From IMG/VR virus record IMGVR_UViG_3300029286_000011: a stretch of DNA of 64,000 bases, one strand, 5' to 3'. The notes under the pieces are model-generated. The model worked only from the letters and a program-made list of their open reading frames with translations. It made no database searches and had not been told where the DNA came from. Below are positions 4,957-64,000 of this stretch, piece after piece. The translations under genes were made by a program, and so were the position numbers. This stretch comes from a virus (Duplodnaviria; Caudoviricetes). Every line of letters begins with the position of its first letter. Position 1 is the stretch's first letter.

Positions 4957-5273
4957 CACGGCTGAACACTAGTGTTGTATTCGTCGTCGCCTTCGTACCG
5001 CGTGTGTGAGTGATGTTTGTACTCTACCGGCTCGTATGTGGCATGAGCCGCGCCGAGATATACTAGCCACCCGCACACACCGCACAGAAATATAGTGCCA
5101 TAGATCAACGTGTCGTAGGCACGATATTGTTCGCCGAAGGCTGTGTTGACCTGGGCGCGCGTAACGACAGTGTCGTTGACCGTCAGCGGCAGCTGATTGC
5201 CGTAGTGCACAACAACGGCCAGGCACACCAGTGACAACAGCGCAAGAATGCAGGAGATCAAGAATCGCTTCAT
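4944..5273 (-). CDS. small membrane protein
   Basis: two hydrophobic segments; likely start MKRFLIS at 5273. Confidence 0.6.
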   Translation of the reverse strand: MKRFLISCILALLSLVCLAVVVHYGNQLPLTVNDTVVTRAQVNTAFGEQYRAYDTLIYGTIFLCGVCGWLVYLGAAHATYEPVEYKHHSHTRYEGDDEYNTSVQPWRCN

Positions 5274-5590
5274 GTTAGCAGTCCTTTCATGGTTGGTGGG
5301 CATAGCCGAATACGGGCTACAAGCTCCTCAACGAAGAGATTGTAGCCCGGCCCCTCACGAGCTGTCACCAAGTGAGAGGCTGTCGGCCACGCCTGTCTCA
5401 AGGGAATCCCGTTGGATACCTCGTACAGCCTTTATTCCCGGCTAAGGGGGCTGCGGACGATTCACGATCCCGATAAATAGGGAAATCGTCCTCAATGGCC
5501 TTGCTGCAATCACAGTAGCTGAGTGACAGCGCTACTGCCAGCAAGAGGATACAGGGCCAAATCATGAAGCACCTCGTTTGGGAGAGGCTG

Positions 5591-6076
5591 CTACTGCGGT
5601 AAACCACCCAGCATGATCGTTGAGTGGATATTGAAAATGACAGTCCCGCCGTTCACGGCCCGTTTGCAACAGCGTCCGATGGCGAACAGGTGGTGGTCGC
5701 ACAACGTATCAACGAACTGGTTTAACAGCCTCGTCGGATCTGGCAAGACGTGCGGCCCGATCAGCTGGCCAATCAACAACGGGTAAAGATCGCAATCGAA
5801 TTCGAATGCGCCGGTTGTGGCCACTCGTAGATCGTCATACTCACCGGCTCGACTACGCTGCATGGCCACGCCAAGGAAACGCTTGACGAATTCAGTGCGA
5901 AGATCAATCTCTTCCCCTGCATGGTGCAACATAACATCCACAAGCTGTGACGCTGGCTTTACGTTATCAACGTCCTGCCACACCAGGTCACCAATCTCGA
6001 TGACCGTATCAGCGCGTACGGCCGCCACAACGGGGTTCGTATCACCCCGCCTCCACCGCATCTTGTCTGCCATCAC
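5591..6076 (-). CDS. putative capsid decoration/cement-like protein
   Basis: MADKMRWRRGDTNPVVAAV...IEIGDLVWQD...FLGVAMQRSR..G...RVATTGAFEFDC resembles a protein family I recall from Planctomycetota genomes/prophages. Confidence 0.45.
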   Translation of the reverse strand: MMADKMRWRRGDTNPVVAAVRADTVIEIGDLVWQDVDNVKPASQLVDVMLHHAGEEIDLRTEFVKRFLGVAMQRSRAGEYDDLRVATTGAFEFDCDLYPLLIGQLIGPHVLPDPTRLLNQFVDTLCDHHLFAIGRCCKRAVNGGTVIFNIHSTIMLGGLPQ

Positions 6077-60815: not shown

Positions 60816-61433
60816 TCACTCCTCTGGGGTTATGTCTAATATTGAGGGGACATCAAACCCCTCAAGAGCCGTAGCTCCTAGCCCGTGGGCCTTCAGACGG
60901 GCGATATTGGCCAAGACATGGGCATAGTGATTTAGGCCGACCCTCTCCCTATGAAGCCAGTAGAAGCGAAGCTGGAGGCCTATACGGGCAAATGAATCGA
61001 CCATTGCCCATAGGCTTGCATGCTTACTACGCCTGACCTGCCTATTTCCACATTGGGCTACGTACTGGCAGTCCGTTACCAGTGCTATCTTCGCTGTCCT
61101 ACCTAGTTTGACACGAGGCTCTATGAACACCAGCGCGTATGCCAGCGCCATGATTTCAGCCACGATGTTTGTGCCGTGCGAAGCTGATCCGTACACGCTG
61201 TGAATACGGCCTGTGTTGTGTACGACCGCTGCACCCCAGCCAATAGGCTTCTTCAGACTTGTACCGGAACCATCTCCGATAACGATGTAGTCCCAGTCTC
61301 GATCAATACCTAGCTCTTCAACCAGCGCTGCTATCGTCGGCAGTACCGTCGTGTTCTGCTCGCTTGGAGGCGAACTCGGCTTTGAGGGCTTCAGCAGCTT
61401 CTTCCCCGGCTTGAATGGTGGCGTCTGCGCCAT
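60816..61433 (-). CDS. rnhA: ribonuclease HI-like protein
   Basis: IGDGSG..GWGA, TNIVAEIMA, VTDCQY, WLHRE; likely start MAQTPP. Confidence 0.85.
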   Translation of the reverse strand: MAQTPPFKPGKKLLKPSKPSSPPSEQNTTVLPTIAALVEELGIDRDWDYIVIGDGSGTSLKKPIGWGAAVVHNTGRIHSVYGSASHGTNIVAEIMALAYALVFIEPRVKLGRTAKIALVTDCQYVAQCGNRQVRRSKHASLWAMVDSFARIGLQLRFYWLHRERVGLNHYAHVLANIARLKAHGLGATALEGFDVPSILDITPEE

Positions 61434-61740
61434 ACAACTCTCCTTGCTTCGGCTGCGCAACGGCTGCCGCTGTCCACGAACACATAGCAATCAACAGACG
61501 ATCTTGAAGCTCCTTGCATTGCGACAGCATCGATATCAGTGCCATAGGCTCCACGCTCTGCCCGAGCATGTTGCCGTTACGATTGGCACAGATGGATCCG
61601 ATGCAGTTGTCGTTCAAGGTGTCCTTCCAGTCGAAGATGATGGCAACACCATTGAGCTCGGCAATATTGGCCAGCAATTCCTTTGCGGCTGCCACTGCCT
61701 GCCAGACGCCACGCTCTTGGAATGTTTGTTGTTCACCCAT
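61318..61740 (-). CDS. hypothetical protein
   Basis: 140-aa ORF, partly overlaps the RNase H gene. Confidence 0.45.
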   Translation of the reverse strand: MGEQQTFQERGVWQAVAAAKELLANIAELNGVAIIFDWKDTLNDNCIGSICANRNGNMLGQSVEPMALISMLSQCKELQDRLLIAMCSWTAAAVAQPKQGELYGADATIQAGEEAAEALKAEFASKRAEHDGTADDSSAG

Positions 61741-62143
61741 TGTTGGTCACCTCGTCTGTAATGGCTACCTCCTGTGGCTGTACTTCTACATCCTCTACGA
61801 CGACATCGTCCTTAGGGCCACGGCATACACTGTGCGTGTAGTCGTTGACCAGCGTAGCTACCTTTGTTGAGGCAAACCACATGACAGGCAGAGCCAGCAA
61901 GCATTGCCACAACGACAGAGGTAACAGCAATACAGCAAACAACGACATAAGCAAACACGCATGGTGGGCCATGCAGAACGGGCATGTAAACAGCTCACCG
62001 AGCAGTGCGTCCGTCTTGTTTGAAGAGCTACGCTTAGCCGCAGCGAACTTTCGAAGCGGCAAAAATACGGAACCATGGTGTAACACCTCGACCAGCTGAT
62101 TGCCGGCCAAGCCAACGACAAGTACCAGCAGAAGCAGTGTCAT
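61733..62143 (-). CDS. DUF1360-like membrane protein
   Basis: HGSVFLPLR...LGELFTCPFCMAHH, two TM segments; likely start MTLLLL. Confidence 0.65.
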   Translation of the reverse strand: MTLLLLVLVVGLAGNQLVEVLHHGSVFLPLRKFAAAKRSSSNKTDALLGELFTCPFCMAHHACLLMSLFAVLLLPLSLWQCLLALPVMWFASTKVATLVNDYTHSVCRGPKDDVVVEDVEVQPQEVAITDEVTNNG

Positions 62144-62381
62144 TTCAGTTTGTCTCCGAGATGTGCTATAGACATCAGCAACAACAACGATAGGGTAACG
62201 CTGATCACGGGAATTAGGCCAAGTACGGGTATCGTCAGCAATCCGCCAACGACACTGGCCACAAATAACTCTGTAGTAGTTTTGTTCTTCATCAATCACC
62301 TCAGGTCAGTTGAGCGCATCGCTGCGCTGCCTTTTAACAGCATCCATTAAGGGCTATACTGTTGCAGGAGGTACTGACCCA

Positions 62382-64000
62382 ATGAGTCTCGCACTAACTA
62401 CTGACACCAACATCAAGCCGGCTGATTTTGACATGTTGATGGATACGTGGAGCCGGCACATGGCCGGGCGTAATCTATACAACCTATCGCCGTTGCTGCC
62501 AATGATGTTGAATCTCAGCGGCGAACCCTTGACCCTCCAAGATCACTATCCGTTTGAACCTCTCTTCGCTACGCATCTGCCCAAGAAGACCACCGTCATA
62601 GCCGGTCGTCAGGTGGGCAAGACACAGTCGTTGTCCGCACAGGGTGTCGTGCAGACCTGTAGTCTTCCGTATTTCAAAACGTTGTTCATATCGCCGCTGT
62701 ACGAACACATACGGCGATTCTCTTCCAACTACGTTCGTCCTCTGATCGACACGTCGCCGATCCGTCACATGTTTATTGACGCCAGGACAACGTCCAATGT
62801 TTTGCAGCGGTCGTTCCTTAATCAGTCGCTTATGTTCTTCTCGTATGCCTTCCTTTCTGTTGATCGTATACGTGGAATACCGGCCGATAAGAACACCTAC
62901 GATGAATCGGCACGCGGCGATAATACATATGTCAGTACACCGTCCGGCCAGGTACTCATTCGCGACGTAGCTGTAGGCACTCCGATAAAAGCTTTCTCGG
63001 AAGATGGTCATTTGATATGGACCCATGTCATAAAGAAGTGGTATGCTGGTCGTCGTCGCTGCTACCGACTTCTACTGACAAATGGGAGATTCGTCGATGC
63101 CACAGCAGAAAGCTGGGTGGGCACAGCCACCGGATGTTTTAGAGTTTCCTCGATCATCAAAGCTGTCGCCGACTCAGGCAGCCAAACAAGCAAAAATTGT
63201 CAGGCAGGCTGTACAGCGGAATCAGCTGAGTCAACTACAATGGCAGACAGTGCTCGGAACACTGCTAGGGGACGGACACATAGCGCTGAGAGGAAGCTAC
63301 CACGCAGTACACGGGCCCAGCCAACAGGCATATCTCTGGCACAAGTACACAATATTGTCCGAGTTCGTTTACGGCGCACCTTCCAGATCGAAGAAGAGCA
63401 AACAAGGCTACTGGTCGGGAAGATTTTGGACTGCCGAGGTTCCGGTTTTCAAGTGCTTGCGGAGCCTCTGGTATCCAAACGGAATCAAGACAGTGACACC
63501 AAGAGCTCTGGAGATGATCGACAAGGTAGGCTTTTTGCCGACCATTGCTTGGTGGCTGGCAGACGATGGGAGCCGCTCAGGTCGAGCGGATTCACCGACG
63601 CTGATTTTTTGTACCAACGGGTTCCAACACGACGAGGTCAGTCTTTTGAGCGAATGGATGACGGATCATGGGTATCCATCGCATGTACTGACTCGGAACG
63701 TACCGGGTTACAGACAGTACCCGATGCTGTATGTCGAGGCTTGGGCGGCTGTGAGACTCATGGAGGATCTACAGGCACTGACGCCGCCATGCATGCGATA
63801 CAAGCTCCGCTGTACTGGGCGGAACGACATGGCGACCTGTATGTTTTGCGGGAAACGGTTCCGGTTACGGATGTTGCGCCGTCGGAACGACTTACCATGG
63901 TTCCCGAACTGCCCGGACTGTGTCATGGAAAAGAAACGATTCGAAAGGAAGCGTTTTGCTACAAGAAATCGAGAGAAAATACGGCAGCGTCGTCGCAGCT
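62382..64000 (+). CDS. terminase large subunit with intein (truncated by window end)
   Basis: GGAGG RBS; Walker A AGRQVGKT; RIRGIPADKNTYDE Walker B; frame open to the window end (my translation; absent from the ORF track because there is no stop). Confidence 0.9.
   Translation, partial: MSLALTTDTNIKPADFDMLMDTWSRHMAGRNLYNLSPLLPMMLNLSGEPLTLQDHYPFEPLFATHLPKKTTVIAGRQVGKTQSLSAQGVVQTCSLPYFKTLFISPLYEHIRRFSSNYVRPLIDTSPIRHMFIDARTTSNVLQRSFLNQSLMFFSYAFLSVDRIRGIPADKNTYDESARGDNTYVSTPSGQVLIRDVAVGTPIKAFSEDGHLIWTHVIKKWYAGRRRCYRLLLTNGRFVDATAESWVGTATGCFRVSSIIKAVADSGSQTSKNCQAGCTAESAESTTMADSARNTARGRTHSAERKLPRSTRAQPTGISLAQVHNIVRVRLRRTFQIEEEQTRLLVGKILDCRGSGFQVLAEPLVSKRNQDSDTKSSGDDRQGRLFADHCLVAGRRWEPLRSSGFTDADFLYQRVPTRRGQSFERMDDGSWVSIACTDSERTGLQTVPDAVCRGLGGCETHGGSTGTDAAMHAIQAPLYWAERHGDLYVLRETVPVTDVAPSERLTMVPELPGLCHGKETIRKEAFCYKKSRENTAASSQ
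62907..64000 (+). mobile_element. intein inserted directly after Walker B DE
   Basis: block A SARGDNTYVSTPSGQVLIRDV; block B YRLLLTNGRFVDATAES. Confidence 0.8.
63082..64000 (+). CDS. LAGLIDADG homing endonuclease in the +1 frame inside the intein
   Basis: VLGTLLGDG, QQAYLWHKY, LWYPNGIKTV, IAWWLADDG, FCTNGF; C-terminal CxxC...CxxC. Confidence 0.88.
   Translation, partial: MGDSSMPQQKAGWAQPPDVLEFPRSSKLSPTQAAKQAKIVRQAVQRNQLSQLQWQTVLGTLLGDGHIALRGSYHAVHGPSQQAYLWHKYTILSEFVYGAPSRSKKSKQGYWSGRFWTAEVPVFKCLRSLWYPNGIKTVTPRALEMIDKVGFLPTIAWWLADDGSRSGRADSPTLIFCTNGFQHDEVSLLSEWMTDHGYPSHVLTRNVPGYRQYPMLYVEAWAAVRLMEDLQALTPPCMRYKLRCTGRNDMATCMFCGKRFRLRMLRRRNDLPWFPNCPDCVMEKKRFERKRFATRNREKIRQRRRS

Follow-up and report, generated by a model that had tools for sequence, protein, structure and literature searches.

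How can one strand of DNA keep two overlapping reading frames free of stop codons over hundreds of codons, and which of them carries the protein? The question is raised by the end of a 64,000 nucleotide (nt) stretch of the virus record IMGVR_UViG_3300029286_000011 (Duplodnaviria; Caudoviricetes), hereafter called the window, where a gene for the large terminase subunit (TerL) appears to be interrupted by an intein and a LAGLIDADG homing endonuclease is specified by another frame of the same strand. Throughout, frame 0 denotes the terminase/intein frame, and the endonuclease lies in the +1 frame. We propose, with a probability of roughly 85%, that the TerL of this ~209-kb lake-water phage contains a Hint-fold intein, and that a homing endonuclease of the I-SceI-type LAGLIDADG class is nested within it in the +1 frame.

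Frame 0 is open from position 62280, possesses an ATG at 62382 and continues to 64000, the end of the window; the +1 frame is open from 63079, immediately after a TGA at 63076, and also runs to the window end, and the third forward frame has 14 stops within 63082–64000. Beyond the window we made use of a 209-kb contig from an ENA assembly (L010), which is identical to the window across 7,619 shared bases. It was reached by a protein search through P0145, a 1122-residue protein identical to the frame-0 translation of the window at all 539 query residues. The initial annotation described frame 0 as stop-free to the end of the window; on L010 it proved to remain open until a single stop at 65748, giving one 1122-codon open reading frame (ORF; 62382–65750). 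The +1 frame is open on this contig solely at 63079–64353, so that 425 codons have both frames open, and the third frame is again rich in stops.

The initial annotation also held that such a pair of open frames would be very unlikely by chance, and this was borne out. Synonymous resampling, in which the +1 protein was kept and the codon usage of the window or genome was applied, gave an expectation of 18.4 frame-0 stops, and none of 20,000 replicates was stop-free; shuffling the codons within the gene gave an expectation of 11.4. A stop in frame 0 requires a +1-frame codon ending in T followed by a codon starting with AA, AG or GA. At these at-risk junctions T is absent, both in the window part (0 of 66–67, against 22% elsewhere) and in the complete endonuclease ORF (0/93, against 73/324 elsewhere; P=4.9e-11). 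Among the other 37 long ORFs of the window, the longest open alternative frame is 155 codons. The dual open frames are real and far beyond chance, and stops in frame 0 are actively avoided.

The +1 frame was originally read as a two-motif LAGLIDADG nuclease with a C-terminal zinc ribbon, and both parts of this description found support. Its product contains a Pfam LAGLIDADG_2 (PF03161) domain (E-value=3.7e-21 for the window part; 76.7 bits for the full protein, the cut-off being 25), and phmmer matched it to I-SceI (3oor) and to 6x1j. An AlphaFold (AF2) model built upon a 13-row alignment has a mean pLDDT (predicted local distance difference test score) of 85.2. Using Foldseek, this model was aligned over 228 columns to I-WcaI and I-SceI (E-value=7e-11 to 4e-10, target template modelling (TM) score 0.73–0.77), the values for I-WcaI being 7e-11 and 0.77. 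The catalytic Asp residues of both motifs (D59 of GDG; D156 and D157 of ADDG) are invariant in 13 homologs. Four Cys residues (C248, C251, C272 and C275), arranged as CxxC...CxxC and conserved in at least 90% of these homologs, are associated with two short strands (pLDDT 63–73) and probably form the zinc ribbon. A second Cys4 cluster (350, 353, 371 and 375), with long helices on both sides, lies beyond the window. Taken together, the profile match, the two catalytic helices and the modelled monomeric two-domain fold indicate that this is probably a member of the I-SceI-like LAGLIDADG enzymes. The endonuclease ORF is entirely nested in the terminase ORF and within the intein.

In frame 0, tblastn matches to annotated phage terminases end at residue 175, which is the DE of Walker B. 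Alignment with the intein-free homolog P0006 (FDE/LQDF, the slash marking the insertion site) located the insert between DE and xQD. In P0145 it comprises residues 176–687, with SARGD as its first and AN as its last residues, followed by Cys. Of 244 full-length homologs, 194 are uninterrupted here; the insert is short in 18 and at least 350 residues long in 32. The +1 residue is Cys in nearly all insert-bearing alleles, and mostly V, I or L in intein-free alleles. This position at a conserved site of the host protein, unoccupied in homologs, points to an intein. The initial annotation had warned of a frame-0 stop ahead of the C-terminal splice junction and of compensating indels in the assembly; neither was found. 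Blocks F and G and the C-extein follow in frame 0 on L010 (...SCAWAN/CQDID...), and contigs assembled separately from three metagenome runs on lake water (the source sample may be among them) are identical over 62300–64000 with no substitutions or gaps; six other lineages, described below, share the +1 offset.

The predicted structure is in agreement with this assignment. In an AF2 model of frame 0 (residues 166–697, 15-row alignment), model residues 10–100 and 480–525 have pLDDT values of ~90, and residues 200–477 have values of 27–36 and are devoid of secondary structure. The model aligns with the NpuDnaB mini-intein 4o1r_A (Z=18.9, root-mean-square deviation 1.4 Å, 137/142 residues aligned), and 30 intein or Hint chains match it with Z of at least 8, which shows the modelled frame-0 fold to be a Hint fold. 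Ser176, Asn687 and Cys688 of P0145 correspond to the position-1 nucleophile, the terminal Asn and the C-extein +1 residue, respectively. In relatives, position 1 is Ser or Cys (Thr in one), the intein ends in Asn or Gln, and the +1 residue is Cys almost throughout. A further Cys, that of RRRCYR (63051–63068), lies 14 residues ahead of the block B Thr and is invariant in 15/15 aligned inteins; 13 of the same 15 do not have the block B His. The coordinates of all of these features are collected in Table 1.

Table 1. Features of the terminase-intein-endonuclease locus, in window coordinates (positions beyond 64000 were read from contig L010)
Feature	Position	Strand	Frame and remarks
Large terminase (TerL) N-extein	62382..62906	+	Frame 0; Pfam GpA_ATPase; alignment with intein-free homolog P0006
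Walker A (GRQVGKT)	62604-62624	+	In TerL N-extein
Walker B terminal DE	62901-62906	+	In TerL N-extein
Putative intein, from Ser1	62907..64442 (window part to 64000)	+	Frame 0; 512 amino acids, ends ...AN, +1 Cys
Predicted Hint N-lobe core	62907..63190	+	Block A SARGDNTYV; pLDDT 87-94 for model residues 10-100; alignments
Likely internal start of endonuclease gene (predicted)	63084..63099	+	Shine-Dalgarno-like GGGAGA 63084-63089, then ATG 63097
Homing endonuclease gene	63097..64353 (window part to 64000)	+	+1 frame; ATG 63097, stop 64351-64353, 418 amino acids
Block B (T-A-E-S, no His)	63102-63113	+	In Hint N-lobe core
First LAGLIDADG motif (VLGTLLGDG)	63250..63276	+	+1 frame; G54, L57, G58 and D59 invariant in 13 homologs
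Conserved helix and strand (IVRVR..EEEQ..L.., GFQVL)	63354..63464	+	Frame 0; overlaps endonuclease residues ~87-123
Passenger linker	63465..64000, on to ~64331	+	Frame 0; open but not conserved as protein
Second LAGLIDADG motif (IAWWLADDG)	63544..63570	+	+1 frame; W153, D156, D157 and G158 invariant in 13 homologs
Cys4 cluster CxxC...CxxC, probable zinc ribbon	63838..63921	+	+1 frame; C248, C251, C272, C275

Which frame is maintained as protein can be seen from codon alignments against L010, in which we determined the most variable codon position. In the exteins and in both Hint parts the difference is highest at frame-0 position 3 (0.55–0.78); in the insert the maximum moves to frame-0 position 1, equivalent to position 3 of the endonuclease (0.51–0.71). 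The frame under protein-level selection is thus seen to change, within the insert, from 0 to +1. In sliding windows the three positions vary equally over the first 30 endonuclease codons, which lie over block B, and the third-position excess is small over codons 61–120. Most likely, selection keeps the +1 protein intact, and in frame 0 it mostly forbids stops alone, the Hint elements excepted. The proposal of the initial annotation that the intein carries a long passenger linker fits well, because stops are avoided, the variable codon position switches, and the pLDDT is ~30 in frame 0 against 85 in the +1 frame. Part of the linker is not passenger, a frame-0 helix and strand at 63354–63464 being conserved also in relatives with no endonuclease.

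The same arrangement was discovered elsewhere. A nested endonuclease ORF between the splicing blocks, with the intein frame open, is present in L010 and in six further metagenomic phage lineages for which DNA was at hand (L003, L004-6, L007-9, L012, L013 and L014), and in all six the offset is again +1. The initial annotation had recommended looking for stop avoidance in homologs; it is significant in all seven lineages (P=3.7e-12 to 2.3e-5 in the other six). Three homologs of the +1 protein (P0121–P0123; 54–59% identity) had been called as separate genes of ~400 residues. Their contigs possess a frame-0 ORF of 1126–1180 codons in which N-extein, Hint N-lobe, open linker, Hint C-lobe and C-extein succeed one another; the endonuclease is again in +1. 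The Hint C-lobe there reads ...HDVYD.E...H..LVN..., ends in SQ, LQ or SN, and is followed across the junction by CQD. L012, L013 and L014 are more distant (endonuclease identity 26–35%) and show the same arrangement. An in-frame Pfam nuclease domain is absent from each of 29 full-size inteins at this site. P0131 (in L015), which is related to the endonuclease but free-standing, adjoins an HNH_3 gene and is not part of a terminase. Public gene calls split the terminases of L003 (5217–8597), L004 (5190–8579) and L007 (4897–8071): the endonuclease and a C-terminal fragment are called, and the N-extein is missing from the calls, with an antisense call (5247–5930) in its place in L004. Gene callers thus split or mis-call these terminases, which amounts to a systematic annotation error for this architecture.

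With regard to translation, internal initiation, yielding the endonuclease as a protein of its own, is the most likely route, because a start codon and a Shine-Dalgarno-like motif are conserved. An ATG occurs at the aligned position in four close lineages, and an ATG or GTG in three distant ones, with a purine-rich motif 5–12 nt upstream of the start in six of the seven lineages. The initial annotation offered ATG 63082 or 63097, following TGA 63076, as the beginning of the frame; of the two, it is 63097 that is conserved as a start. A programmed +1 ribosomal frameshift somewhere in 63079–63230 would instead produce a fusion of N-extein, Hint N-lobe and endonuclease and do away with internal initiation. 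We regard this as improbable, though better placed than the other alternatives. The +1 frame does open at 63079, inside the translated Hint N-lobe, and in L003 it is open for 67 codons upstream of the conserved ATG; the only start candidates of L013 are GTG and TTG, and the first 20 residues of the endonuclease are poorly predicted in its AF2 model, all of which would suit a fusion. Against a fusion stand the conserved ATG/GTG and the purine-rich motif; in the window, TGA 63076 closes the +1 frame a mere 21 nt ahead of the ATG, and an RF2-type +1 site is impossible in a stop-free frame 0, other slippery or stalling motifs not having been scanned for.

Several observations weigh against our reading. 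Block B has T-A-E-S in place of TxxH, and Ala precedes the terminal Asn, so that both canonical His residues are missing. Pfam finds no intein in P0145, and relatives give only sub-threshold Intein_splicing/Hint matches that are split across the insert. The alignments behind both AF2 models are shallow (13–15 rows), and the Shine-Dalgarno-like motif is weak in L003. On a FastTree phylogeny of 244 exteins, from which insert columns were removed, intein presence requires at least 36 changes for 46 carriers, compared with 42.7±1.6 for shuffled labels, a rough count of gain and loss since the tree consists of deep representatives at 50% identity. The near-scattered distribution may hint at homing and loss, for which it would be expected. 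Among close relatives with DNA the block B His is found only in L004 (TADH), and in the wider alignment in P0157 and P0207; several relatives end in VHN and so have the penultimate His. With both His residues gone, we infer splicing competence from the essential role of TerL and from the position of the insert inside an ATPase motif.

An alternative is that the insert is a Hint-derived element that no longer splices, or that the endonuclease is a decaying relic, the open frames reflecting recent history and not a present role. The lost His residues, the Gln at the end of the L003 and L004 inteins and the sub-cut-off Pfam models would be consistent with such decay, yet we consider it very improbable. 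The insert splits the Walker B of an essential ATPase, and conservation extends to Ser/Cys1, to the block F Asp, to the +1 Cys and to the terminal Asn, which is Gln in L003 and L004. Nor does the endonuclease resemble a relic: at 26–59% identity between lineages its changes are biased to third positions and its catalytic Asp residues are invariant. Stop avoidance has been kept independently in lineages whose synonymous sites are saturated.

Although intein endonucleases are normally in frame and LAGLIDADG_2 (I-SceI-like) enzymes are typically encoded by introns, neither a frameshift artefact of sequencing or assembly nor a group I intron that carries the endonuclease gene and leaves frame 0 untranslated across the insert is credible, both being already contradicted: the three per-run assemblies are identical and indel-free and seven lineages have the +1 offset in common, and an intron would leave the strong frame-0 stop avoidance unexplained, would not account for a Hint C-lobe and C-extein in frame 0, and gave no Rfam match in L010 5800–9500 at E-values up to 1. 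A split intein in a fractured gene was rejected as well, the host gene being a single 1122-codon ORF.

Returning to the overlap of the two frames, the conserved frame-0 segment at 63354–63464 deserves further attention. It lies where the third-position excess of the +1 frame is weak, corresponds to model residues 160–200 (pLDDT 71–91), with a helix at 166–182 and a strand at 192–195, and carries a motif found across the clade that consists of RVR, T/S, an acidic run, Leu and then a hydrophobic strand. The motif is kept in mini-inteins too short for an endonuclease (P0002, P0003, P0158 and P0207); in L001, the DNA of the P0003 mini-intein, tblastn detected no endonuclease relic, and many +1 stops are present. 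Since alignments with the Npu DnaE N-intein extend to model residue 198, the model suggests that the strand completes the Hint N-lobe. If so, the endonuclease ORF would begin ~370 nt upstream of the canonical insertion point and the stretch would code in both frames. We take this double coding to be likely, though not established, and the segment is a candidate for functional protein in both frames. More tentatively, the overlap may be partly functional in both frames with the intein element having arisen by overprinting on the DNA of the conserved, I-SceI-like N-domain of the endonuclease, which is ancestral, and having then become indispensable; we view this as possible rather than probable. 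At the other end, the endonuclease stop falls inside the first codons of the Hint C-lobe (LVPVELL...; L010 7970–8061, equivalent to window 64351–64442), so that the 3' end of the nested gene overlaps this conserved Hint element by ~7 codons.

A working model of the locus would be as follows. A ribosome would read frame 0 straight through N-extein, Hint N-lobe, a mostly disordered linker of ~280 residues, Hint C-lobe and C-extein, after which the intein would excise itself by means of Ser1, the terminal Asn and the +1 Cys and so restore the packaging ATPase. From the same DNA, internal initiation in the +1 frame would yield the separate 418-residue I-SceI-type LAGLIDADG endonuclease (ATG 63097 to 64353) with its zinc-ribbon and helical tail. 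This enzyme would cut intein-free terminase alleles, into which the whole element would then be copied.

The architecture is already known, though rare, and has been published for a cyanobacterial DnaX intein and for actinophage inteins. The first case of an endonuclease out of frame with its intein is that of the cyanobacterial DnaX intein (Gorbalenya 1998), as cited in the preprints discussed next. Phillips, DeSimone and Gogarten (bioRxiv 10.64898/2026.09.14.751524) described, for a cyanobacterial DnaX intein, a '+2ORF' that covers the disordered middle and encodes a LAGLIDADG endonuclease, and proposed secondary invasion of a mini-intein. As in the present case, the endonuclease frame is under purifying selection, the extein frame is relaxed, and mini-intein relatives exist. 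However, the host protein here is a phage terminase, interrupted at Walker B, rather than bacterial DnaX; the frame is +1, whereas the DnaX authors write '+2ORF'; and the endonuclease is I-SceI-like (PF03161) with a Cys-rich helical tail of ~180 residues. In addition, our intein begins with Ser and has no block B His, and its endonuclease ORF overlaps conserved Hint elements too.

Actinophage inteins, many of them in the large terminase subunit, in which the endonuclease lies outside of the intein frame were reported by Gosselin, Arsenault and Gogarten (bioRxiv 10.1101/2025.01.02.630785). Their list comprises LAGLIDADG and VSR-like endonucleases in antisense and endonuclease VII-like ones in frame 3, but no same-strand LAGLIDADG at +1 in a terminase. 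There, as here, splicing is argued from the essential nature of the terminase, and the authors' model has a free-standing endonuclease gene as the invader. They studied cultured actinophages; ours are uncultured lake and environmental phages with contigs of up to 209 kb. The ShiLan insertion (PMC11855218), a non-splicing insert in a phage methylase that hides an HNH endonuclease out of frame, likewise leaves the frame of the host gene stop-free across an insert that codes for an endonuclease in another frame, but it has no detectable splicing domain, in contrast to the predicted Hint fold and junction nucleophiles found here. In the fractured genes of Dassa et al. (2009), as described in a paper citing them, a free-standing endonuclease gene sits between the halves of a split intein. 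From that description, the likeness is in having a free-standing-type gene where the endonuclease domain of an intein would sit; the host gene there is in two ORFs, whereas here frame 0 is continuous and stops are selected against. Finally, I-SceI and I-WcaI share with our enzyme the fold and two motifs with catalytic Asp, but they reside in mitochondrial group I introns; ours is nested in an intein ORF and has extra C-terminal Cys4 and helical regions.

Upstream of the terminase, and on the opposite strand, are an RNase H-like gene (60816–61490) and a gene for a DUF1360-like membrane protein (61733–62299), both labels being taken from Pfam matches on syntenic homologs in L001 and L003. The long ORFs of positions 1–61500 are nearly all on the minus strand, and the terminase begins a plus-strand unit. 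The syntenic relative with a mini-intein (L001/L002) has CsrA, ribosome recycling factor, a stand-alone RNA polymerase alpha C-terminal domain (alpha-CTD) and thymidylate synthase near the terminase; L010 likewise has an alpha-CTD gene, as well as SbcCD-like genes. Among homologs from outside the window, P0094, P0101, P0004, P0147, P0149, P0158, P0169 and P0185 are terminases of the clade with inteins at other sites. In P0094 and P0101 the P-loop is interrupted by a Cys1 intein, in P0004 a Cys1 mini-intein of 124 residues precedes the Walker B DE by four residues, and several clade proteins of 1300–1619 residues contain two inteins.

What is new here is the host site, the phage group, the +1 placement of an I-SceI-type enzyme, the wide reach of the clade and a possibly doubly functional stretch of DNA. 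Out-of-frame intein endonucleases argue for invasion as the way in which splicing domains and endonucleases came together, and they offer a natural experiment on the amount of unstructured insert that a Hint domain can bear. The clade is well suited to tests: it is broad (with full-size inserts in at least 32 of the 50%-identity clusters among the matches), its intein sits in an essential gene, and its statistical signal is unusually clean. It lends itself to the study of internal initiation inside a translated gene, of splicing without the block B His, and of selection purely for an open frame. Should the overlap prove functional in both frames, a single stretch of sequence would bind splicing to homing throughout an old and widespread clade of phage inteins.

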